Below, in pieces: positions 6,348-54,967 of a stretch of DNA of 64,000 nt (position 1 is the first letter of the stretch; each line of letters opens with the position of its first letter). Origin of the DNA: Candidatus Aminicenantes bacterium UBA1061 (lineage in GTDB: Bacteria > Acidobacteriota > Aminicenantia > Aminicenantales > Saccharicenantaceae); the NCBI GenBank assembly GCA_002316315.1, contig DCDG01000037.1, forward strand, positions 21,967-85,966. Reading direction: 5' to 3'. A program made the translations under genes and the position numbers. The notes below the pieces were generated by a model. It saw only the letters and a program-made list of their open reading frames with translations. It was not told where the DNA came from and made no database searches.

Positions 6348-6371
6348 AGTAACATTCACTTTTTAAGATAT

Positions 6372-6445
6372 CGGGACGTGGCGCAGCCTGGTAGCGCACA
6401 TGCTTGGGGTGCATGGGGTCAGCGGTTCAAATCCGCTCGTCCCGA
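6372..6445 (+). tRNA. tRNA-Pro (anticodon GGG)
   Basis: Manual cloverleaf fold. Acceptor CGGGACG pairs with CGTCCCG. D-arm GCGC-AGCCTGGTA-GCGC. Anticodon stem CATGC/GCATG with loop TTGGGGT, giving anticodon GGG. T-arm AGCGG-TTCAAAT-CCGCT. Discriminator A; no encoded CCA. Confidence 0.8.
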
Positions 6446-6474
6446 TTTTTTTTATAAAAGAGATTAGAACAAAA

Positions 6475-31292: not shown

Positions 31293-34200
31293 GTGGGGTT
31301 TCGGTTTTGGCCGTCGGCATTGAAAGGTCGAGAGCATCGACTGCTCCAACTGGCTATTGTCTTAGGCTGTCTGTCTATCATCCTGGTCTTAAGCTCATTT
31401 TTTTGGTTTAATCAACAGCCATCAAGCTCAGAGAAGGCTATTCCATCCAATTTAAACCAGGCCCGCCGTGAAATTCATCACGATTTTTCGCGGCTTCTTG
31501 AACTCTTGCAAAAAAGGCAAATTCAGCTTAGCGCTCGTACTCTGCCCGAAGACTTATGGACGAGATTTGAATTCTTCAAAAGAAGTGATCTAAATCCTGC
31601 TCTGGAGGGTGTGGCGAGTTTAGACGAGAAACTAAATCTCGAGGTCTGGTATGGAAATGTTGCCGATCTAAAAACCTCATTGCCCGATCTTGAAAAATAT
31701 TTAACAGATATTCTGGCTGGAAGTTTTGTTATTCAGGATAGGGCTTCAACTTATCTGGTAAGTCTAAAGCCTGTTGCTCAAAATAGTTATCTGGCCATTT
31801 TTGAGCTGCTGGCCTTTCAGCCTCAATTTCAGTCAACCTATTTGCATCAGTACATAAGGCTAAGGTCAATAAGCAAGACTGGTGCTGATATCGATTTCTG
31901 GGAATATTCTCATGAGACAGAAGCTCTTGACCGACTGTTTGAACGAAATCAAGATGCCTATTTGAGCCAGCAAAGGGAAGAACAGGAGAGCCGGACACTT
32001 TATTTCCCCCTAAGAAATGAGAAAAGTAAAATTTTAGCAACTGTGACTTTAAATTCTTTTCGCCTCGAAGGCCAAAAGCTAACTCTAAACCAGTTGGTCA
32101 GACTTCTGACCATAATTCTGGCTATCTTAGCTCTAACTTTCCTTTTATTCTGGCTTGGTCACGATAAACCCAGATCTTTATGGGCCTCAAAACTGGCTGA
32201 CGGATTGCTGGCCTCGGTGGCACTTCTAGCTATAAGATATCTGCTGGCCATACTGGCTGAACTCAGACCTTTTGTTTACTGGCCAGTTTTTTCTCCCCGT
32301 GAAGCAGGTTTCAAAACGATCGGGAATTTGACCAGCTCGCCAGGTGATATTTTTTTAACTTATCTTTTTATTTTCTTTCTGGTCGTCCTCAGCATTAAAC
32401 CATTAAAAGCCAGGCTAAGTCTCACCTCCCGGCATACCCGAACAGAGTCAGTCAATAATAAACATAAAATCCTGATAATTATGGCCGGAGCCTTTCTTTT
32501 TGTCCTGGGTTTCCAGGCCTTTATCTGGAGCCTAAAAAAAATAGTGGCCGGCACCAGCTTTAATTTACTGCAATATAATTTTAATTTAGCTTCCATTCTT
32601 ATTTATTTAAGTCTTTTCCTGGCCGGCCTGAGTTTTATCTTCTTTCCCCTGCTGATTTTAAGAAAGATATTTTCGACCGGCTGGGTCAGAACGATTTTCT
32701 GGGGAGCAAGTCTGGCTTCAATTCTGATTTTTCAGTTTATAGCCTGGTTGATTATAAAGCCTGCCGGGTTAAAATTAGCCTGGCAAATTCTTCTATTATT
32801 ATTGCTCTTCTTCCTCTCCGTTCTGTTCAAGCGTCGGGCCGGTTATATTCTTCTCAGTCTGTTCCTGATCGCCCTTGTTCAATTCACTTCTGTCCGCAGC
32901 TTAACGGCTACCAGGACTCGCCAGTTGACGGAAAATGTCCTTGTTCACCTGGTTTCTTCTCAGAAAACCTGGGCTGAAATGGCCCTCAAGCAATCACTCT
33001 TAGAGTTACAAAGGCAGATCCGAGACATTCATTCCTTTTTCCGTCATCCAGCTGATCGGGACTTTGCCCGTTCTCTCTGGAACAAGACCTTCCTGGCCAG
33101 GCTTAACTGGAATTCCTGCCTTTATCTCCAGTCGAACGACAGGAAGGTCTTATCATCTTTTTCTTTGAATATGCCAATTTTTGCAGAACAGACTGATGAC
33201 CTGGAAATGTCGGTTGAGCCGGTTTATACCGAGCAATATCTGGAAATCCTTGGCCAGGAGCGTCATTTTTTGATCGGTTACCAGGACTTTACTGCTGACA
33301 ATGGAGCCTCTGGCCGGCTGGTCATCTGGGTCAGCCTCGATCCCACTCTTCTACCTTTTATTAATACTGCCAACCCATATTTTGAATTGTTACGATTAAA
33401 TACCCTTCCTTCCCTTCAACACTTCCCGGTTTCTCTGGCCATCTTTGACTCTGAAGGTCAGCCACTTTTTAATCAGCCCCAGCCGGCCTTTTCTATTGAA
33501 CCGGAATTAAGACAAAAGATAAAAGAACAGCCATCGGGTTTATGGACAGTTCTCCATCTAAACAGCCAGGGTTATCGTGCCTATTGTCTGACTCTTGATG
33601 ATGGCCATTTCTACGCTTTTTATCAGCCGCCAGAATCAAGCCGCCGGCTGATCACTGGCTTTCTGAAGCTTTTCTTTCTCTTTATTATTTTCTCTCTATT
33701 GCTGCTCATCCCGCTAGCTGCCAGAAGGAGAGAATGGCGGCCGGACCTCCGGTCTTTTTCAGCCAGGGTTTATGTCGCTTTTTTTACCGTGGCCTTAGTG
33801 CCTCTTTTTTTCTTTATCTTTTTTACCCAGACCATGGTCGAAAGAATATTTGCCGACCGCTTTGTGAACGAAGCTACCAGCCGGGCTTATTTTGCCCGGA
33901 GTATCCTCTATGACTTTACCAGCCTGCAGGAGTCAGCTGAACAACAACCAGCAGGACTACCAGAAGACCTGGTCTTCTGGATCAGCGCTACCCTTAATAA
34001 TGATGTGAATCTCTATCGCCAGGGGTTATTTCTTTCTTCAAGTCGGCGGGAATTTTTTGAAACAGGAATTCTATCCGATCTAATTGATGGTGAGGTTTAC
34101 AGCCGAATTATTTATGGCCACCAGCCACTGGTCGTTAGCCGGAAATCTTTTGGCCAGTTTTCATATCAGACCCTGACCATTCCCTATAACTATCAGCAGG

Positions 34201-35198
34201 ATGTTTATCTTTTAAGCCTGCCTTTTCCTTTTGAAAGGCAGGAAATTTCTAAAGCCACGGGCGAGTTGCTGGAATTTTTTATCTTTTCATCGATATTTTT
34301 TATCGGCCTGATTGCTTTCTTTGCCAGTACGATCAAAAGGATGATTATTATCCCGATCAATAAGCTCATCCGGGCCACACAGGAGGTTGGATTGGGCAAC
34401 CTGGATGTGAAAGTGGATCACCAGGCTCAGGATGAACTGAAGGGCCTGATTGATGGCTTTAACACCATGGTTGAAAACCTGAAAGGACATGAAAAAGAAC
34501 TGGCTGAGCTCAGTCAGAAAGTAGCCTGGGCAGAAATGGCTAGAAGAGTAGCTCATGAAATAAAAAATCCTCTGACCCCCATCCAGCTCTCAGCTGAGCA
34601 TATTCTTAAAGTTCATGAAGATCAGCATCCTGAGTTTGATCGTATCCTCAGAGAATCAATATCCTATATAATTTCAGAGGTAGAGAATCTAAGGAGAATA
34701 GCTCAGGAATTTATGACTGTCGCCCGGGAATCTGATACACACCTCGAAAAGTTTGACCTGGCCAATCTCGTTGAGGAATTAGTTGAACCTTATCAAAGTA
34801 CCCTCGAAGGCCGGATACCTATTACTCTTAAGAAGTCTGGCGATGATTTTATCTTAAATGGTGATCGGGAAAAAGTGAAGGTTGCTATCCGCAATTTGCT
34901 AATTAATTCCATTGAAGCCATCAAGGGAAAAGGGCAGATTGAGTTTATTCTCAAATCATCTCCCGAAGCAATCAGACTGGAAATCAAGGACAGCGGGGCA
35001 GGAATTCCAGCCGATATTGCCGAGCACATTTTTGAACCATATTTTTCAACTAAAGAAAAGGGCACCGGCCTTGGCCTGGCTATCTGTAAAAGAATTGTAG
35101 AAGAGAATGGTGGCTCAATTAAAATAGAAAGCAGGTCGGGCCAGGGAACAACGGTGATTATGGCTTTCCTTAGGGTAGCTGATAATCAGGCCGGCTGA
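31293..35198 (+). CDS. Large multi-TM sensor histidine kinase (extracytoplasmic sensor domains, HAMP, HisKA, HATPase_c)
   Basis: 1301 aa. N-terminal TM; about 240-aa periplasmic segment; a block of about 8 TM helices; a second extramembrane segment; further TMs; HAMP; H-box VAHEIKNPLTPI (NtrY/AtoS-type); and G1/G2 boxes (DSGAGI, GTGLGLAI). Confidence 0.8.
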   Translation: MGFRFWPSALKGREHRLLQLAIVLGCLSIILVLSSFFWFNQQPSSSEKAIPSNLNQARREIHHDFSRLLELLQKRQIQLSARTLPEDLWTRFEFFKRSDLNPALEGVASLDEKLNLEVWYGNVADLKTSLPDLEKYLTDILAGSFVIQDRASTYLVSLKPVAQNSYLAIFELLAFQPQFQSTYLHQYIRLRSISKTGADIDFWEYSHETEALDRLFERNQDAYLSQQREEQESRTLYFPLRNEKSKILATVTLNSFRLEGQKLTLNQLVRLLTIILAILALTFLLFWLGHDKPRSLWASKLADGLLASVALLAIRYLLAILAELRPFVYWPVFSPREAGFKTIGNLTSSPGDIFLTYLFIFFLVVLSIKPLKARLSLTSRHTRTESVNNKHKILIIMAGAFLFVLGFQAFIWSLKKIVAGTSFNLLQYNFNLASILIYLSLFLAGLSFIFFPLLILRKIFSTGWVRTIFWGASLASILIFQFIAWLIIKPAGLKLAWQILLLLLLFFLSVLFKRRAGYILLSLFLIALVQFTSVRSLTATRTRQLTENVLVHLVSSQKTWAEMALKQSLLELQRQIRDIHSFFRHPADRDFARSLWNKTFLARLNWNSCLYLQSNDRKVLSSFSLNMPIFAEQTDDLEMSVEPVYTEQYLEILGQERHFLIGYQDFTADNGASGRLVIWVSLDPTLLPFINTANPYFELLRLNTLPSLQHFPVSLAIFDSEGQPLFNQPQPAFSIEPELRQKIKEQPSGLWTVLHLNSQGYRAYCLTLDDGHFYAFYQPPESSRRLITGFLKLFFLFIIFSLLLLIPLAARRREWRPDLRSFSARVYVAFFTVALVPLFFFIFFTQTMVERIFADRFVNEATSRAYFARSILYDFTSLQESAEQQPAGLPEDLVFWISATLNNDVNLYRQGLFLSSSRREFFETGILSDLIDGEVYSRIIYGHQPLVVSRKSFGQFSYQTLTIPYNYQQDVYLLSLPFPFERQEISKATGELLEFFIFSSIFFIGLIAFFASTIKRMIIIPINKLIRATQEVGLGNLDVKVDHQAQDELKGLIDGFNTMVENLKGHEKELAELSQKVAWAEMARRVAHEIKNPLTPIQLSAEHILKVHEDQHPEFDRILRESISYIISEVENLRRIAQEFMTVARESDTHLEKFDLANLVEELVEPYQSTLEGRIPITLKKSGDDFILNGDREKVKVAIRNLLINSIEAIKGKGQIEFILKSSPEAIRLEIKDSGAGIPADIAEHIFEPYFSTKEKGTGLGLAICKRIVEENGGSIKIESRSGQGTTVIMAFLRVADNQAG

Positions 35199-44751: not shown

Positions 44752-45972
44752 ATGACAGTTGTAATTGCTCTATGTCTTCTACTGCTTATTGCTTACCTTT
44801 TTGAGTTTTACTCAGAAAAGATAAATGTACCGACAGTTATGATCTTACTTCTGGTCGGTTTTCTTCTGAGAGAAATAATTACTTATTTCAAAATCCCCTT
44901 CCCGGATTTATTTTTCTTATTGCCAGCCCTTGGCAATCTTGGCTTGCTGTTGATTGTTCTGGAAGCTACCCTGAGCATTAAATTAAACAGAGAGCATGGG
45001 AAACTGCTTCTTCAGACTCTGGGCCTGGCCCTGGCCAGTATTATTATCCTGTCATTTCTGCTGGCTCTGGCTCTCAGGTCAACCCATCCTGAAGTCAGCT
45101 TCAGAGAACTTCTTCTGATGGCCGCAGTCTTTGCTGGCAGTAGCAGTGCTGTGGCTATCTCCAGTTCAAAACATTTGCCCACCGCCAGCAGGAATTTCGT
45201 TGTTTATGAAAGCAGCTTTTCTGATATCCTCAGCATCATGTTTTTTAATTTTCTTTTATGGAATCAAACTCTTGGTGGAAATATATTTTTTATCGCTCTG
45301 TCTCAATTAATTATAACGGTTATCATTTCTGCTGTCTCCATCTATTTTTTATTTTTTCTCATACAAAGAATTGAACATGAGATTAAATTTATTCCAATTA
45401 TCCTCCTGGTAATTTTGATCTATTCAGTTTCAGAAATTATGCATCTGCCAGGCCTTATTTTTATCTTATTTTTTGGTTTGTTTTTAAATAATTATGACAG
45501 GGTACAGTCACTTCCCTGGCTGAAAAAAATGTTTATCAAGGAAAATCCTGGGGAAGTAACCAGATTTAAGGATCTGGTAGTTGAGTTTACTTTCCTTATC
45601 AAATCGATCTTTTTCCTTGTTTTTGGTTTTGCTGTCAGTAGGCGCGAAGTGCTGAATCTCCCCGATCTTTTTAAAGCTCTGGTTATAGTGGCCGTTATTT
45701 TTGGACTTAGATGGCTATTATTGAAGTTGATGAGAATCGAGCTGGACCGGGTCTTATACTTTGCACCGCGTGGCCTGATTACCATTCTTTTATTTGTCAC
45801 CCTTCAAGAAAAGGGCCTTGCTCCTTTTCTCTCCAGGGGAATGGTCTTCCAGGTAGTTTTTCTGTCGTGTCTGGTGATGGTCATAGGTAACCTGGCAGGG
45901 AAAAAGCAGGAAGAAAAAATCGAAGCCCGGACGGTCGAAAACCCATCAGGTAGCGTGGAAGAGTTCGAGTAA
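44752..45972 (+). CDS. Cation:proton antiporter-like polytopic membrane protein
   Basis: 406 aa with about 11 TM helices. The resemblance to Na+/H+ exchanger-type proteins is weak, and the family call is tentative. Confidence 0.35.
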   Translation: MTVVIALCLLLLIAYLFEFYSEKINVPTVMILLLVGFLLREIITYFKIPFPDLFFLLPALGNLGLLLIVLEATLSIKLNREHGKLLLQTLGLALASIIILSFLLALALRSTHPEVSFRELLLMAAVFAGSSSAVAISSSKHLPTASRNFVVYESSFSDILSIMFFNFLLWNQTLGGNIFFIALSQLIITVIISAVSIYFLFFLIQRIEHEIKFIPIILLVILIYSVSEIMHLPGLIFILFFGLFLNNYDRVQSLPWLKKMFIKENPGEVTRFKDLVVEFTFLIKSIFFLVFGFAVSRREVLNLPDLFKALVIVAVIFGLRWLLLKLMRIELDRVLYFAPRGLITILLFVTLQEKGLAPFLSRGMVFQVVFLSCLVMVIGNLAGKKQEEKIEARTVENPSGSVEEFE

Positions 45973-47667
45973 AGCTGGCTCCGGGTTATCCTCATACAAT
46001 ATTTGATTCTTTTCATAGAAAAAGTAGCGGTGATAAAGCCAGAGGCCGGCCATAATAAAAATGATAACCCCATAAAAACCAACCAATCTGGAAGGCCTGG
46101 CCAGAAAATAGGGTTCGATCCAGCGCGGTATAAAGATATAACCCAGAAATAACAGGACATAAACCAGCCAGAAGATATAGAGCTTACTTTTCCCGGGAAG
46201 ATAAGAACAGGCAAAAGGAAATTTCCGGTGCTGAAAAAACAGGGCTTCCACCAGCAAAACAGCCAGAGCCAGGTCATAAAGACAATGAATACCAGCAGTG
46301 GTCCAGTTCCAGATAAAACCATAAAAAACAAAAAGCAGGAGATAGAGCGGAATAAGGGCAAAAAAGAAAATGCTTTTCCGCAGAGCTGAAAAATAAGACC
46401 AGCACCGCGGACTTTCCGCTATTTTAAAAATCCAGTTAGCTTCCAGGTTGAGCGGGATATTAGTGGCATCTCTTATTCCCAGAGCCAGAAAGAAGCTCAG
46501 AACCAGCGGTAAGGAAAGCATATTACCAGATTGAGCTTTCCAGAAAAATTTACCAGTCGAGACAAACATAATAAGGCTCACCCCAAAACCAATCCCTAAA
46601 TAAGACAGAACCCTGGTCCGGTGAAGACGGCTGCGGCTCAGGGCACTGCCATAAAACCAGAAAACGGCCCTTTCTGTCGGTTGTCTTAAAATCGTCAGAT
46701 TCAAGACGGGTTCAGCCAGCCTCCGTAAAATTGACGGCCGGTAATGTTTGGCTCCTTCCGGTGATATTTTTTTGAGATACCGGTTGTATGAAATTAGAGT
46801 AATTAGAAAGAAAGCAGCCACAGCTATGACCAGAGCTACAATTGCTCTAAAAGCCAGCTGCCGGAAAAAGGGCTGCCGGTTTCCCTGTAAAACCTCATAG
46901 AGTCCGGTAAACCAGAGCGGGGGGAAATTCATCATAAGGGAAGTTGGACTCCCCTGAAGGGCTTTGAAGCTTTCAAACTGCTTTTGAATAAAATGCGTAT
47001 CAATCAGGAAAAAATAAAGAACAAAAATATGAGCAACGATGAGACCAAAGCGCAATAGATCTGAAATCCGTTGAAAGATTTTTCCCCGAAGAAGGATATT
47101 GAAAAAACCAACAATAAAACCGAGAGCAAAGAATATAAAGGCCCCGGCCAGGAACATAACCAGAAGATGAGTCAGGAAAAGAAGAAAAGCTGAAAAAAGG
47201 CCGTAGTATCTTGCCTGGCCCAAAAATATGGCAAAAACAATTGACGACAGAGAGTTAATACCAATAGCAAATAGCCCGACAAACATCACCAGGCTGGCAA
47301 ACTTGGCCGAAAAAACAGTCAGCGGCTTCAAGGGCAGGGGCATCAGATTCAAAAAATCCTGCCGGTCAAGAAAAATTACATCCCAGACAAAGATGGTGAC
47401 GAGCCCGAGCAGCAGCATGCTCAGGGTAGTCATTTCGCAAATTTCAAGCCAGGCCTCGGGTTTCTCTGGCAAGATAAGATACGGGAAAAGAAGGTAATCG
47501 GCGACCGAGGCCGGAAAAATCGCCAGAAGAGCTATAATGCTCACCACCTTGCCAGTCATCTGCTCTTCAAAAAAGACCGTTTCATTTAGAAAAAGGTGCT
47601 GGAAGAAATGACGCGTTAAGACTACAAATGATCTCTCTTTGAGCTGAAGTTTTTTAAAGCCGTCCAT
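45946..47667 (-). CDS. Large ABC-2-type transporter permease (about 12 TM)
   Basis: 573-aa highly hydrophobic protein 27 bp downstream of, and co-oriented with, an ABC ATPase. Confidence 0.5.
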   Translation of the reverse strand: MDGFKKLQLKERSFVVLTRHFFQHLFLNETVFFEEQMTGKVVSIIALLAIFPASVADYLLFPYLILPEKPEAWLEICEMTTLSMLLLGLVTIFVWDVIFLDRQDFLNLMPLPLKPLTVFSAKFASLVMFVGLFAIGINSLSSIVFAIFLGQARYYGLFSAFLLFLTHLLVMFLAGAFIFFALGFIVGFFNILLRGKIFQRISDLLRFGLIVAHIFVLYFFLIDTHFIQKQFESFKALQGSPTSLMMNFPPLWFTGLYEVLQGNRQPFFRQLAFRAIVALVIAVAAFFLITLISYNRYLKKISPEGAKHYRPSILRRLAEPVLNLTILRQPTERAVFWFYGSALSRSRLHRTRVLSYLGIGFGVSLIMFVSTGKFFWKAQSGNMLSLPLVLSFFLALGIRDATNIPLNLEANWIFKIAESPRCWSYFSALRKSIFFFALIPLYLLLFVFYGFIWNWTTAGIHCLYDLALAVLLVEALFFQHRKFPFACSYLPGKSKLYIFWLVYVLLFLGYIFIPRWIEPYFLARPSRLVGFYGVIIFIMAGLWLYHRYFFYEKNQILYEDNPEPALLELFHAT

Positions 47668-47693
47668 TTTTTTATTTTTAGCTGACTTAAGTT

Positions 47694-48464
47694 TCAGCCG
47701 TTTTTCTTCATTAAAGAAAGTAATTCTGAAGCCGCTGCCTCCGGGTCTTCCTGAACAACCAGCTGACCGAAAATTTCTTCAAGCGATGGGACTTTCATTA
47801 ACTGACGCAGATTCTCGACCGAATCATCTGCCCTGACCTTCCCCTGATAAAGAATCAACACCCGGCTGGCCACTTTCTCGACAATGTCCAGAAGATGAGA
47901 AGAATAAATGACAAGGTGGCCTTCAGACGCCAGCCGCCTGACCAGTTTTTCAATAATGAGAATAGTGGAAACATCCAGCCCCGACAATGGCTCGTCAAGG
48001 AGAAGAATCTCCGGGTCATGAAGGAGAGCAGCTGTTATTAAAACTTTCTGCGTCATGCCTTTGGAAAAAGAAGCAATCTCGGAATACAGATCACCGGCCA
48101 GGTCAAAGACCTCCATAAAGCCTTTGATTTTGGCTTTAAGGACTGATTCTTTAAGCCCTCGCAGTCTGCCCACCATGAGGAGATAATCATAGGCGCTGAG
48201 ATGGGAATAAATGGCCGGCTCTTCCGGCACATAGCCCAGCCTTTGCTTGAACCAGACCAGATTCTTCCAGACATTCCGCCCGTCATAGAAAATTTCACCT
48301 TCTGTTGGCTCCAGCAGTCCGGCAATCATTTTGATGGTGGTGGACTTGCCGGCACCGTTTGGGCCGAGATAGCCGACCGACTCCCCCGGTTTGATGGTGA
48401 AACTCACCGCATCGACCACTTTTAAAAATTGATATTTTTTTGTTATCCCTTTTAGCTCTAACAT
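47694..48464 (-). CDS. ABC transporter ATP-binding protein (ABC-2 subfamily)
   Basis: Walker A GPNGAGKST. Signature LSGLDV-like motif. Walker B LLLDEP. Length 256 aa. Confidence 0.8.
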   Translation of the reverse strand: MLELKGITKKYQFLKVVDAVSFTIKPGESVGYLGPNGAGKSTTIKMIAGLLEPTEGEIFYDGRNVWKNLVWFKQRLGYVPEEPAIYSHLSAYDYLLMVGRLRGLKESVLKAKIKGFMEVFDLAGDLYSEIASFSKGMTQKVLITAALLHDPEILLLDEPLSGLDVSTILIIEKLVRRLASEGHLVIYSSHLLDIVEKVASRVLILYQGKVRADDSVENLRQLMKVPSLEEIFGQLVVQEDPEAAASELLSLMKKNG

Positions 48465-48936
48465 CTTAGACCAGGGTCAAATATATCACTTATGATTTTA
48501 TTCTGACAAGAAAATTATAGCGTTAAAATGCCTGGCGTGCTCAGAAAGGACCAACCAGCTTTACCCTCGCCCTCTGCAATAATATGTAAAGGCTATGGAT
48601 GATATATTTATTCACCGTTTTGCCGCTCAGTCCTGAGTCGGGGGTAAAGAGGTGGCCGGCTTCCTGGTAAAAAATTAAAGGCCACTTAAGATGATACCTA
48701 TGATTAATAGAACGGCAGGTCAGACAAAATCTTTCATCAATTGAGTGTTTTACGTTAAGGGTCAATTACTGTTCAATTTTTGGGGATATATAAACCTACA
48801 ATTATCGGCTCTGTCCTTTATTATATTTGCGGGTCCTTCGAAATAAAATTGGCGATCTGCAATCCCGACCACTCAGGCCCACAAAACTCTCCCTTCAAGC
48901 CAATCCGCCTCTTAGCTTTAAGCTATTGGTTCAGGG

Positions 48937-50115
48937 TTAGAAGCCGGTGATTAAACCCAGCCCAAGCCGCAGGTGTTTGGGTAAATCACTTTTAAAAACA
49001 TAGGTGGCCTCAATTGTTGCCCGGACATTTCTTCGCAAAAGGTAACCATAATGAAGACCGGCCGAAGTGTAATCCAGGTCGGGCTGATCTGAATCCACCC
49101 AGTTAAAAAGGGCCACCGTATACCAGCGCGAATCATCGCCATGAGGAAAATAAAGTAGCTCAGCGAATCCACCCTGGGTTTGTATTTTCTCCGCCCCGAC
49201 TATTAAAAAGTAAGGGTTCTTGTCACGCCTGGTCAAATACTGGACATTAAGCTCAAATTTCGGTTGAGACCAGGTCAGGTCACCACCGGCCATCCACAGG
49301 CTGTCATTGACATTGTCCTGCCTTTCTTTTCCCAGGTAGCCAAAGGCTCCTGCTCTGAATTCCGGAGTGAAATCCTGCGAAACCCGCAGCAATAAATTCT
49401 TATATTTATCAGCATCAAATGTTTCAAAATCGTCAACTGGATCGAGGCCCATCCCATTAACGATCTCCAGAGTCAGGTCAGTACCGGTAGGCAGCCCGTA
49501 GGTCAGCATCACCCCCCGATCATAAGTTAGATCAACCCTGGCCTGTCCGACTTTAACTCCATAAATTCTGTAATCTTCATAAGTCAGCCTTAATTCTCTT
49601 TTAAAAAGAGGATCTGAAACCTGAAATTGTCCAACATAGAGATCCAGGTTAGTTTTGAACAGATTGTTGAACATAATAAAAGCATCTTCCAGGCCAGCTA
49701 TTTCCCCTCCCTCAGTAAAGATAAAATATAAATAATAAGAGATGTGTTTGGAGATTTCTCCACCAGACATTAACTTGATAATAAATGGAGCTGAAAAATC
49801 AAACCGCTTGTTATGAGCATTGTTAAAGCTCAAAAAACCATCAAACCTGATGGCAATGGGCAATTCCCGCAAGAGTGAAAGCATGTCATCGCCGGTCTCA
49901 ATGTTATAGCGCGGTGTTTCTTTATCCTTAATCACATAGCCGTTATTGGCAAACTCATCACCATAGGGCTTGAGCCGCGGAAATGGATTATGACAAACCT
50001 TACAACTGATACTGTATTTGCGAGCAAAGGCCGGTATGGACCAGGCTTCGGAGGCCAGTAAAAATAGTAAGATCGTTGACAGAAGAAGAACTCCGCCATT
50101 TTTCCTCATTGTCAT
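48937..50115 (-). CDS. Cyc2-like fused monoheme cytochrome c / outer-membrane beta-barrel porin (putative)
   Basis: Signal peptide (…LLASEAWS). Immediately after it, a single heme c motif in ...ARKYSISCKVCHNPFPRLKPYGDEFANNGY. The remaining about 340 aa are beta-strand-rich with alternating hydrophobics and a C-terminal ...GLGLITGF (terminal Phe), typical of OM beta-barrels. It lies 22 bp downstream of a multiheme cytochrome gene. Confidence 0.55.
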   Translation of the reverse strand: MTMRKNGGVLLLSTILLFLLASEAWSIPAFARKYSISCKVCHNPFPRLKPYGDEFANNGYVIKDKETPRYNIETGDDMLSLLRELPIAIRFDGFLSFNNAHNKRFDFSAPFIIKLMSGGEISKHISYYLYFIFTEGGEIAGLEDAFIMFNNLFKTNLDLYVGQFQVSDPLFKRELRLTYEDYRIYGVKVGQARVDLTYDRGVMLTYGLPTGTDLTLEIVNGMGLDPVDDFETFDADKYKNLLLRVSQDFTPEFRAGAFGYLGKERQDNVNDSLWMAGGDLTWSQPKFELNVQYLTRRDKNPYFLIVGAEKIQTQGGFAELLYFPHGDDSRWYTVALFNWVDSDQPDLDYTSAGLHYGYLLRRNVRATIEATYVFKSDLPKHLRLGLGLITGF

Positions 50116-50137
50116 TTTTACCTCCGCCAGAGATCAA

Positions 50138-51508
50138 TTAATCAATGACGTTAATGGTAGTTTGATGCTTATTAACTTCAATTACCTCCGTCTCATCAGC
50201 CGGGACACCGAGAAAATCAGCTACCGGTTTGACCAGCCGCTGATAATAAAGGGCTGCCCTAACTGTCAGCAGTCCAGCTGGAATGCTATCCGGCAGAACA
50301 AAAGTACAGGTTTCTATCCTGGTTTCCTTCGGGCCAATTCTATAATCAACACCCTGGCTCTTGGTGTTCCATTGCTGAATGGTCATCCGTCCTTGCGGAT
50401 CAAAATAAGGCATCCGGAAAATGCGGTCGCCGGCTGGCACGCCATCTCTCTGGACTCCCTTAAAGTTCTGGTCATTAAGGGCAATACCCATATCCTGATA
50501 AGCCAGCGTATCGGCGGCAATAGTGTATTCTTCTCCTTCGAATCCTTTTTTATCGACTGGCAGATGATAGACATTGCCTCTGGCATCAACCGCATCGACA
50601 TGCAGCCAGACAATTCTGTCTTCGACTGAACCGGTTGGAAACTTATGACCAGTCTTCTGGTTAAAAAGAACAATGGTGAATTTAACTTTGTCCCCGGGTA
50701 CCGCCTCATTGATATCAGGATGAATTCTTAGCTCAATTGTTCCCCTGACTTTACCCGGATCATGAGCACCATGAAAAAGATGCTGGCGAACATCAGGATA
50801 AGCATTGCCCATAGAAGCACTTTTGCCAGGGGCATAGGTCATATGACAATCGTGGCACTTTACTCCTTCCTGAGCATAAGGCCCATCTTTCCACTCCAGC
50901 TGAGTGGATTTAACCCAGACTCCATAAGGACTCTTTTCATTGTGACAGGTACCACAGAACTCCGCCCTGGACAGAAAATCAGATTTGACTAAATTATGTT
51001 CGGGAGAATTGTTATTCTGTCGCGGCCCATACTTATTCTTGCCTGGTTCGGAGATCCAGTTAAAATTAAACGGGGTGTCGCCAGCCATACCAGTTACGGT
51101 GTGGCAGACCTCGCAGGAAACCGATTCATTGGCTCTGGTACCTTTAGCCGGGACTGCCGGCGGAACATCACCAGCTAAAAAGGCCAGAGGCGTGTGACAG
51201 CCGTTACAACCGGCTTTAACACCGGCCACCACCGGATCTTTCTCAGCCTGGGGAACAGCCAGCTTGAAGTATTCGATTTCGTCCCAGTGATGGGTATAGG
51301 CCTGGGACATCATGGCCTGTTTCCACTGCTGATAGATGTCATTATGACATTGAATTCCGCAGAAAGCCGGAGTCTGATAGTCGCTGTATTTTTTTGAGCC
51401 GAGTGCTTCATCTCCAGCCTTTTGCAAGCCGTAGGAAGTTATTAAGCCGAGAGAAATAGCCAGAATGAGGGGCAAAACAACAGCCAGCCATCCGGAGAGT
51501 TGTTTCAT
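50138..51508 (-). CDS. Pentaheme c-type cytochrome, periplasmic/secreted
   Basis: N-terminal signal/anchor. Five CxxCH motifs (CGIQCH, CNGCH, CEVCH, CGTCH, CHDCH) lie in the first roughly 225 residues. The C-terminal 230 aa carry no heme motif. Confidence 0.8.
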   Translation of the reverse strand: MKQLSGWLAVVLPLILAISLGLITSYGLQKAGDEALGSKKYSDYQTPAFCGIQCHNDIYQQWKQAMMSQAYTHHWDEIEYFKLAVPQAEKDPVVAGVKAGCNGCHTPLAFLAGDVPPAVPAKGTRANESVSCEVCHTVTGMAGDTPFNFNWISEPGKNKYGPRQNNNSPEHNLVKSDFLSRAEFCGTCHNEKSPYGVWVKSTQLEWKDGPYAQEGVKCHDCHMTYAPGKSASMGNAYPDVRQHLFHGAHDPGKVRGTIELRIHPDINEAVPGDKVKFTIVLFNQKTGHKFPTGSVEDRIVWLHVDAVDARGNVYHLPVDKKGFEGEEYTIAADTLAYQDMGIALNDQNFKGVQRDGVPAGDRIFRMPYFDPQGRMTIQQWNTKSQGVDYRIGPKETRIETCTFVLPDSIPAGLLTVRAALYYQRLVKPVADFLGVPADETEVIEVNKHQTTINVID

Positions 51509-51792
51509 AAGACCCTCCTTTTTCTCCCTATTCCCTATATAGTTTATATGTTAAGTAAAATAAGGCCCAATGTCAAATTTTGAAGATTCAATTACTCCTG
51601 GACAGGGTTTTAAGGACTGAACCAGACACACCAGGTATTGACCCTGGAAATCAGGGCTGATTATATAAACTTCTACCAGCTATAAATATAAAATTCAGCA
51701 CCTGACCTGACTGGTTCAATCTCCCCTTTATATCCAGTATGTGCTGAATGAACCCCGCGCCAGCCCAGGTGGCCAGCTATCCTCCTACCTTT

Positions 51793-54689: not shown

Positions 54690-54967
<278 letters not shown>

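Follow-up and report, generated by a model that had tools for sequence, protein, structure and literature searches.

We analysed a stretch of 64,000 nucleotides (nt) from contig DCDG01000037.1 of Candidatus Aminicenantes bacterium UBA1061, here called the window, and studied two adjacent genes on its reverse strand. The first gene encodes a pentaheme cytochrome c of 456 amino acids (aa). The second, directly downstream, encodes a 392-aa protein of the Cyc2 type, in which a monoheme cytochrome is fused to a porin. The two genes form a bicistronic unit, and the ATG of the pentaheme open reading frame (ORF) is preceded by a strong ribosome-binding site, AAGGAGGG. A promoter-like sequence lies upstream, although the scan for such consensus sites found 8 of them versus 6.2 expected in shuffles. 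Neither a compositional anomaly nor a signature of recent transfer was seen at the gene pair, the GC content of which (0.44-0.47) matches the rest of the window. The unit and the features of its first gene are the following:

51548..51576, reverse strand: promoter-like TTGACA-17-TAACAT, ~40 nt before the ATG of the pentaheme gene (consensus match only)
50138..51508, reverse strand: pentaheme cytochrome c of the pentaheme cytochrome (PHC) family, with the fold of Thermochromatium tepidum c552 and MccSep, 456 aa (from the ORF, the profile comparison with PDB sequences and the model)
51422..51508, reverse strand: predicted Sec signal peptide, residues ~1-27/29 (cleavage by homology; the hydrophobic stretch is longer in the window protein)
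51344..51361, reverse strand: heme site 1, CGIQCH (CX3CH), C50-H55
51308..51310, reverse strand: Met67, at the position of the His in the family's 'SMHA'; probable axial ligand (His/Met heme)
51194..51208, reverse strand: heme site 2, CNGCH, C101-H105; equivalent of the MccSep catalytic heme 2 (C118-H122)
51101..51115, reverse strand: heme site 3, CEVCH, C132-H136
50942..50956, reverse strand: heme site 4, CGTCH, C185-H189
50909..50911, reverse strand: Lys200, aligned to within one residue with the MccSep heme-2 distal ligand Cys239; putative ligand or pocket residue
50843..50857, reverse strand: heme site 5, CHDCH, C218-H222
50627..50650, reverse strand: GHKFPTGS motif of the immunoglobulin (Ig)-like domain, with invariant His288 and with Ser294 at the MccSep Sec325 position
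50141..50746, reverse strand: C-terminal Ig-like beta-sandwich, ~residues 255-456 (DSSP of the model; Foldseek to Ig-like domains and to the C-terminal half of 5ZE8)
50116..50137, reverse strand: 22-nt intergenic spacer with GGAGG

An earlier description of this gene, made by a model from the letters and translations (the sequence-only reading), had placed five CXXCH motifs in residues ~50-225, with spacings of 51, 31, 54 and 33 residues. There are indeed five heme sites, located at residues 50-222, but the first is CX3CH and not CXXCH; the spacings are 51/31/53/33 residues, so that only the third value had to be corrected. The heme-free and beta-rich C-terminal half described in the same reading was recovered as well. 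No heme motif occurs past residue 222, the sole non-heme Cys is C401, and the C-terminal 234 residues are mostly beta strand, with strands starting at ~residue 225 in the DSSP assignment of the model. The five-heme pattern is not due to chance, since all five sites are invariant across an alignment of 47 sequences with identities down to 25%. In the clade that contains the window protein, CX3CH is found at heme site 1 in 69 of 72 parsed members, usually as CG[AST][AS]CH, whereas the more distant family has CXXCH at this site.

An exhaustive search found 2153 cluster representatives related to the pentaheme protein at E<=0.001, 114 of them at E<=1e-30. The nearest named relatives belong to metagenome-assembled genomes (MAGs) of Candidatus Aminicenantes/Saccharicenans, and the identical protein is recorded in many assemblies, for instance GCA_035441505.1. 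One relative of 794 aa (P0272) harbours ten CXXCH arranged as two pentaheme-like sets, showing that the pentaheme unit can duplicate. At two metagenome loci (L103 and L108), two PHC genes were found in tandem, downstream of the match.

The pentaheme proteins of the clade have canonical cleavable signal peptides that end in ...AQA/PKAGD, immediately before the conserved KAGDEALG. Because these signal peptides are of the ordinary cleavable kind, the pentaheme protein is predicted to be soluble in the periplasm. For the same reason an N-terminal membrane anchor, which the long hydrophobic stretch of the window protein might suggest, is disfavoured, though for the window protein only by homology.

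The downstream gene had been called a porin in the sequence-only reading. A barrel is indeed modelled, but the CXXCH of the protein itself had been overlooked. Its features are the following:

48937..50115, reverse strand: Cyc2-type fused monoheme cytochrome-porin, 392 aa, ending in ...ITGF (from the ORF, the motif criteria of Keffer et al. 2021 and the barrel model)
49972..50040, reverse strand: Cyc2 signature SIPAFARKY-SIS-CKVCH-NPF-PRL, residues 26-48
48940..49857, reverse strand: predicted beta-barrel porin part, residues ~87-392, roughly 16 strands (model, Foldseek)

The protein carries a signal peptide, followed by the signature with its own CXXCH, and no Pfam or NCBIfam family matched it. 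Its C-terminus, ...ITGF, is what we take to be a typical outer-membrane beta-signal. Cyc2 has been defined by the motif AXPXFAR[Q/K][T/Y] just upstream of a single CXXCH, by PXL four residues after it and by a length of at least 365 aa, and the FAR motif was reported to be unique to Cyc2 (Keffer et al., mBio 2021). All of these elements are found in the downstream protein, except that the leading Ala, which is present in most of its relatives, is Ser here; it also passes the PXFAR[QK][TY] screen of the same authors.

The AlphaFold model of the Cyc2-like protein is of moderate quality, with a predicted local distance difference test (pLDDT) value of 63 overall (70-87 in most strands), a predicted template modelling (pTM) score of 0.65 and ~16-18 strand elements. 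Foldseek gave OprP (2O4V, E=7e-10) as the top match of the barrel, and the next matches were all 16-strand (general) porins. OprP and OprO are also the templates reported for Cyc2PV-1 (Keffer et al., mBio 2021). Thus, in its motif, single CXXCH, PXL, length of at least 365 aa and predicted ~16-strand OprP-like barrel, the protein is like Cyc2PV-1, the Cyc2 of A. ferrooxidans and Cyt572 of Leptospirillum. By motif and modelled barrel it is a Cyc2-type fused cytochrome-porin, and Fe(II) oxidase activity is a prediction at most. Homologues of cyc2 or sulfocyanin have been flagged in Aminicenantes by the authors of FeGenie, and Ignavibacteriales and Zixibacteria from sites with a predominance of Cyc2 cluster 3 have been reported to carry 'iron oxidation' genes. 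What Cyc2 does is considered least certain for the distant clusters and for organisms in which iron oxidation is not known (Keffer et al. 2021).

Family, fold and conserved residues of the pentaheme protein

To place the pentaheme protein, a profile built from 47 family members was compared with the PDB sequences. It matched the T. tepidum pentaheme cytochrome c552 (5ZE8) over the full length with E=5e-44, and the Geobacter sulfurreducens MccSep/ExtKL (9WT8 and related entries) with E=4e-20 over residues 1-376. The single sequence also matched 5ZE8 (E=1e-4), in three collinear stretches. Searches with Pfam and NCBIfam, on the other hand, gave generic multiheme matches only, the best NCBIfam match being NF040886 (ExtKL) with 40.9 bits versus a cut-off of 250. 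Profile searches against the Pfam multiheme families, NrfA, c554 and OmcA/MtrC had been proposed in the sequence-only reading. NrfA, c554, OmcA/MtrC, NapC/NirT and TorC were all rejected, as they gave generic heme-motif matches or scores below the cut-off.

The AlphaFold2 model of the pentaheme protein has a pLDDT of 93.2 and a pTM of 0.88. When it was compared with the PDB by Foldseek, and the best 50 of 76 matches at E<=0.001 were listed, 5ZE8 was the top match and, among the matches listed, the sole full-length one (E=1.6e-19, TM 0.58/0.68). The remaining listed matches covered only the C-terminal half and were Ig-like sandwiches. The PHC family was named in a study of cable bacteria and groups ExtKL, Gsu2801 and T. 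tepidum c552. The window protein belongs to this family by its heme sites, by its Ig-like domain and by full-length homology. The idea of an uncharacterised multiheme family therefore has to be given up, since the full-length homology to 5ZE8 and MccSep is of the kind that the sequence-only reading itself had named as speaking against it. What has never been studied is the clade that contains the window protein; the family itself has solved members.

Like T. tepidum c552 (5ZE8; Chen et al. 2019), for which a role in sulfur metabolism was suggested in the cable-bacteria study, the window protein consists of a five-heme N-terminal helical domain and a C-terminal Ig-like domain. The two proteins align collinearly from end to end and have the AGH/PTG motif and the positions of His243 and His249 in common. 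However, the identity in the structural alignment is only 18%, and c552 differs in having CXXCH at heme 1, His at position 67, Cys at the position of Lys200 and, between hemes 3 and 4, a large insertion. The C-terminal half of the window protein is thus the Ig-like domain of the family, with an invariant His288, and is integral to the cytochrome rather than a separate docking module.

In MccSep, the five hemes are held by an N-terminal helical cap, and a selenocysteine (Sec), Sec325, reaches in from the Ig-like stem (bioRxiv 10.1101/2025.11.18.688581). The residue aligned to Sec325 (PDGUP) is Ser294 (PTGSV, within GHKFPTGSV), which is Ser in 76/76 clade members. Cys239 and Cys240 of MccSep align to Val199 and Lys200 in the profile alignment, and the single loop Cys of T. 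tepidum c552 (PLCQT) aligns gap-free to Lys200. No Cys was found in the loop between heme 4 and heme 5 of the window protein. Position 200 is Lys in 75/76 clade members and Met in one.

The sequence-only reading had also proposed to count the conserved distal ligands in an ortholog alignment, and this was done. Four positions are conserved family-wide as candidates for a sixth ligand, namely position 67, His171, His243 and His288. Position 67 is His in 58/70 distant relatives and Met in 118/118 close homologues; in the species-level clade it is Met in 74/76 members and His in the remaining two. His288 and Pro291 show no variation in the 47 sequences and lie in a motif (AGHxxPTG) that aligns to 'AGHSIPDGUP' of MccSep. 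Position 249 is His or Asn across the family. His73, His246, His249 and His315 are invariant within the clade only, the first three in 76/76 members. From the alignments, five six-coordinate hemes would have enough conserved ligand candidates in Met67, His171, His243 and His288 together with Lys200 or His246/His249. We infer one His/Met heme, and Lys200 would either ligate heme 2 or sit in the heme-2 pocket. The rare swaps of Met67 to His (2/76) and of Lys200 to Met (1/76) resemble heme-ligand exchange, and may be taken to support an axial-ligand role of both residues, short of proof.

Linkage and distribution of the gene pair

Linkage was scanned with one genome per species, which gave 80 loci with pentaheme proteins 65-92% identical to the window protein. 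According to the record titles these loci belong to Aminicenantes/Acidobacteriota (including Holophagae), Ignavibacteriota (including the cultured Rosettibacter primus), Zixibacteria, Glassbacteria and Bacteroidota. The phylum labels are those deposited, and several near-identical loci are implausibly named (Eubacteriales, Clostridia), so that the count of at least five phyla is approximate. When the ORFs of the 80 loci were clustered, exactly two conserved families were obtained: the pentaheme family (80/80) and the Cyc2-like family (75/80). Among the five loci without a Cyc2-like gene, three end at or just after the pentaheme gene; the other two have 1.6 kb and 0.9 kb of downstream sequence, and the absence there is unexplained.

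In all 75 loci that have both genes, these are co-oriented and adjacent, with a median gap of 13 nt. Moreover, the closer one protein is to its counterpart in the window, the closer the other tends to be (identities correlated with r=0.75 over the 75 loci), the cytochrome being more conserved than the Cyc2-like protein (median identity of 72% versus 53%). No third conserved gene that could encode an inner-membrane partner or a regulator was found in the 80 loci, the next commonest family being present in 15/80. Synteny therefore strongly supports that the two proteins, as predicted from their genes, work together. Given the tight adjacency, the lack of a third conserved gene and the unrelated neighbours, the pair behaves as a self-contained unit across unrelated genomic contexts. 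In ~15 of the 80 loci (L016 353-1762, L027 487-1851 and ~13 other Ignavibacteriota), a 671-aa membrane sensor-like protein and a 456-aa NtrC-type response regulator adjoin the pair; these may be lineage-specific regulators of the module.

Outside the 80 loci, a relative that is 63% identical to the window pentaheme protein (P0242) also has a Cyc2 gene. No Cyc2 gene was found in outgroups at 34-43% pentaheme identity, and no Cyc2-motif gene was found in 80 metagenome loci (L081-L160) of a PHC clade at ~30% identity. The latter result led us to reject Cyc2 pairing as a trait of the whole PHC family. Met67 was likewise rejected as a marker of the pairing, as three outgroups (P0243, P0246 and P0248) have Met67 and Lys200 yet no Cyc2 neighbour. 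In the ~30%-identity clade the commonest real neighbour is a 12-heme cytochrome of ~438 aa (11/80 loci, e.g. L108 6053-7369, reverse strand). Outgroup pentaheme genes at 34-43% identity stand in other contexts (L162 723-3320; L163 395-3493), one of them following a cytochrome c assembly gene and another lying near a reductive-dehalogenase-like gene on the opposite strand.

In the window, the neighbours of the pair are unrelated to it and include an SDH-type protease, an ABC ATPase and peptidases. The region downstream of the pair and the further features noted in the window are listed below. The 472 nt that follow the stop codon of the Cyc2-like gene, up to the ABC ATPase gene, contain no convincing ORF, but only a 74-aa frame with a TTG start; no Rfam match at the gathering threshold was found there, and no terminator-like site in a simple scan. 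The ABC ATPase and the membrane protein encoded after it are not conserved beside the cytochrome pair in other phyla.

48465..48936: 472 nt separating the Cyc2-like gene from the ABC ATPase gene
48541..48765, reverse strand: 74-aa frame with TTG start
45946..48464, reverse strand: ABC ATPase, then a 573-aa polytopic membrane protein without a Pfam family; downstream of the pair
54697..54963, reverse strand: large bacterial signal recognition particle RNA (Rfam RF01854, 162 bits), in an ORF-poor stretch between a beta-propeller gene and a DUF378 gene
31293..35198, forward strand: 1301-aa histidine kinase with C-terminal HAMP, HisKA and HATPase_c, its first ~1000 residues without a Pfam family at E<=1e-5
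6371..6446, forward strand: tRNA-Pro (GGG), the only tRNA of the window

Possible functions of the pair

We propose that the pair encodes a minimal two-protein redox module spanning the outer membrane, made of a Cyc2-type porin and a dedicated periplasmic pentaheme relay, and we put the chances of this proposal at about even. Both proteins would be exported by the Sec pathway and receive their c-type hemes in the periplasm. The Cyc2-type protein would form a ~16-strand OprP-like barrel in the outer membrane, and its N-terminal monoheme domain would lie in the periplasmic opening or next to it. As the external reactant we expect a redox species that is soluble and small enough to fit a 16-strand pore, and by the argument made for Cyc2 by Keffer et al., Fe2+/Fe3+ complexes are obvious candidates. 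On the periplasmic side, the pentaheme protein, an alpha-helical cap with a branched chain of five hemes packed on the Ig-like sandwich, would make physical contact with the Cyc2-type protein and swap electrons with its heme, relaying or storing them for an inner-membrane partner encoded elsewhere.

With respect to the direction of electron flow, we lean slightly towards an outward flow, by which anaerobic heterotrophs would dispose of electrons, rather than towards the iron oxidation that is usually implied by a cyc2 annotation. This leaning is based on the low potential of the T. tepidum homologue compared to the potential of a Cyc2, on Fe(III) reduction in some of the lineages that carry the pair, and on the hosts, which are mostly anaerobic heterotrophs. 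The low potential of T. tepidum c552 is stated in the title of Chen et al. 2019, as cited in the cable-bacteria study, and the potential of Cyc2PV-1 is +208 mV (Keffer et al. 2021). Ignavibacteria, including relatives of Melioribacter, have been reported as Fe(III) reducers.

The next carrier after Cyc2 would be a periplasmic c-type cytochrome, as it is in the iron oxidisers. In the known Cyc2 pathways this part is played by mono- or diheme carriers (e.g. Cyc1) or by rusticyanin. In contrast to those systems, the pair studied here is hosted by heterotrophs, anaerobic or facultative, in which iron oxidation is not known. We found no paper in a literature search that links Cyc2 with ExtKL, PtdA, MccSep or a pentaheme PHC partner, although such an absence is not proof.

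Several points weigh against the proposed relay module. The 64 kb of the window contain no gene for an inner-membrane partner. The interaction of the two proteins is predicted from gene linkage, the thermodynamic argument on direction would carry over from homologues and not from the window protein, and the model of the Cyc2-like protein is only moderate (pLDDT 63), its cytochrome domain being unresolved. In addition, the clade-invariant residues His73, Lys200, His246, His249, Ser294 and His315 cluster, by alignment, around the active-site pocket of MccSep, which would fit an enzyme better than a simple relay.

Four other explanations were considered. A divergent pentaheme nitrite reductase of the NrfA type would account for the five hemes and the similar size, PtdA-like relatives are grouped in COG3303, and weak local NrfA matches occur around heme 5. 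However, the pentaheme protein contains no CXXCK, Pfam PF02335 (Cytochrom_C552) scores 13.4 bits versus a cut-off of 24.1 and covers residues 206-226 only, and NCBIfam NF008339 scores 10.4 bits versus 595. NrfA chains reach no better than E>=0.005 against the family profile, compared to 5e-44 for 5ZE8, and no NrfA is among the best 50 of the 76 Foldseek matches. Besides, the window contains neither nrfH nor nrfBCD genes and no cytochrome ORF other than those of the pair. The sequence-only reading was right in seeing neither an NrfA-like protein nor an NrfH/NrfBCD partner nearby, and we consider an NrfA-type reductase close to impossible. A polysulfide (or selenite) reductase of the MccSep type, orthologous to Geobacter ExtKL, would agree with ExtKL being the best NCBIfam match and with the family profile finding the sequences of the MccSep crystal structures. 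MccSep and the window protein have in common the five hemes and an Ig-like stem, the AGHxxP(T/D)G motif and a nearby gene for an outer-membrane porin (extI in the case of MccSep). Yet MccSep is a homotetrameric polysulfide reductase with His122/Cys239 at heme 2 and a catalytic Sec325, and its family is defined by the conserved Sec/Cys, whereas the window protein has Val199/Lys200 and Ser294 at these positions, its ORF is continuous without an in-frame TGA, and the NCBIfam score is far below the cut-off. Since the counterparts of Sec325 and Cys239 are missing, the protein is not an enzyme of the MccSep type, and we rejected the orthology as very improbable.

A further explanation, docking or threading of the cytochrome into the downstream porin by its heme-free domain after the manner of MtrA/MtrB or OmaB/OmbB, goes back to the sequence-only reading. 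MtrCAB, PioAB and OmaB-OmbB likewise have the gene of an outer-membrane barrel next to that of a periplasmic multiheme cytochrome, and electrons are presumed to cross the outer membrane; here the genes are also co-conserved, and the Ig-like domain of the family has an extended beta-hairpin. Those systems, however, use barrels of 20-26 strands (26 in MtrB) around an extended deca- or octaheme wire, while the barrel modelled here has ~16 strands, resembles OprP and general porins and already has an N-terminal heme domain of its own. In its model the pentaheme protein forms a compact globule of two domains and not an extended heme wire, and its Ig-like domain packs on the heme cap, to which it supplies the invariant His288. 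For a compact protein of ~450 residues and a 16-strand barrel that already accommodates a heme domain, threading in the manner of MtrA is implausible, and we regard docking of this kind as most unlikely. The explanation that deserves more attention is that the pentaheme protein is itself a periplasmic enzyme, with the reactive site at heme 2 remodelled from Cys/Sec to Lys200, Ser294 and the clade-invariant His cluster. The Cyc2-type porin would then mainly be a substrate channel, perhaps an electron gate, and the substrate might be an anion, a sulfur species or a metal ion. MccSep, a full-length homologue, is an enzyme, and the route of its substrate across the outer membrane is called unknown by its authors (bioRxiv 10.1101/2025.11.18.688581). 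The residues aligned to its pocket are nearly all invariant in the clade (Lys200 in 75/76; Ser294, His73, His246 and His249 in 76/76), His73 lies in the loop which in MccSep bears Arg83, a residue that binds the substrate, and this conservation suggests that the heme-2 pocket has been maintained and has not decayed. The best structural match of the barrel is the anion-specific OprP. Furthermore, gene pairs of a pentaheme protein and a porin recur, as ExtKL-ExtI in Geobacter and as PtdA-PtdB in the ptdABCDEFG cluster of marine Alphaproteobacteria. The latter, compared by description and not by sequence, likewise has a gene for a pentaheme protein with a beta-sandwich followed by a porin gene, and a porin-cytochrome complex was proposed for it (bioRxiv 10.1101/2023.11.21.568154). 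PtdB was described only as a porin, with no heme reported, in contrast to the downstream protein studied here, and ptdC-G add a flavoprotein, a tetraheme protein, an Fe-S protein, a ferric-reductase-like membrane protein and a decaheme protein, whereas only two genes are conserved here. On the other side, Cys239 and Sec325, shown to be essential in MccSep by mutagenesis, are both absent, candidates for the sixth ligand are available for all five hemes, the porin's own heme would be superfluous in a pure substrate channel, and the sequence names no substrate. We consider an enzyme possible but doubtful. Taken further, the pair could be a minimal redox machine of the outer membrane, made of two genes that move horizontally. 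The pentaheme protein would then be a new heme enzyme, with an MccSep-like heme-2 site formed by a Lys200 ligand, Ser294 and a ring of clade-invariant His, and with its substrate delivered or gated by the Cyc2 heme-porin; this is a speculative reading that we think rather unlikely.

Both the relay and the enzyme bear on the use of Cyc2, the genetic marker on which searches for microbial iron oxidation most often rely. Both kinds of protein were already known, and cyc2 had been reported before in these phyla. What appears to be undescribed in the literature searched is the strict, clade-specific operon of a PHC gene and a cyc2 gene across genomes labelled as at least five phyla, the predicted ligand set with a CX3CH heme 1, Met67 and Lys200, and the implication for reading cyc2 matches in anaerobic heterotrophs. 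The recently defined pentaheme family, with T. tepidum c552, ExtKL/MccSep, the cable-bacteria PHCs and PtdA, gains a clade with a different predicted ligand set and a third independent case in which a member is encoded beside an outer-membrane channel. A specific Cyc2 clade is now tied to one conserved periplasmic partner of solved fold, in MAGs labelled as at least five phyla and in one cultured strain (Rosettibacter primus, L067). This provides a concrete two-protein system for asking what such Cyc2 proteins do and which way the electrons flow. If the pentaheme protein were an enzyme served by the Cyc2-type porin, many of the 'cyc2 = iron oxidation' calls in metagenomes of Aminicenantes, Ignavibacteriota and Zixibacteria would reflect a different chemistry.

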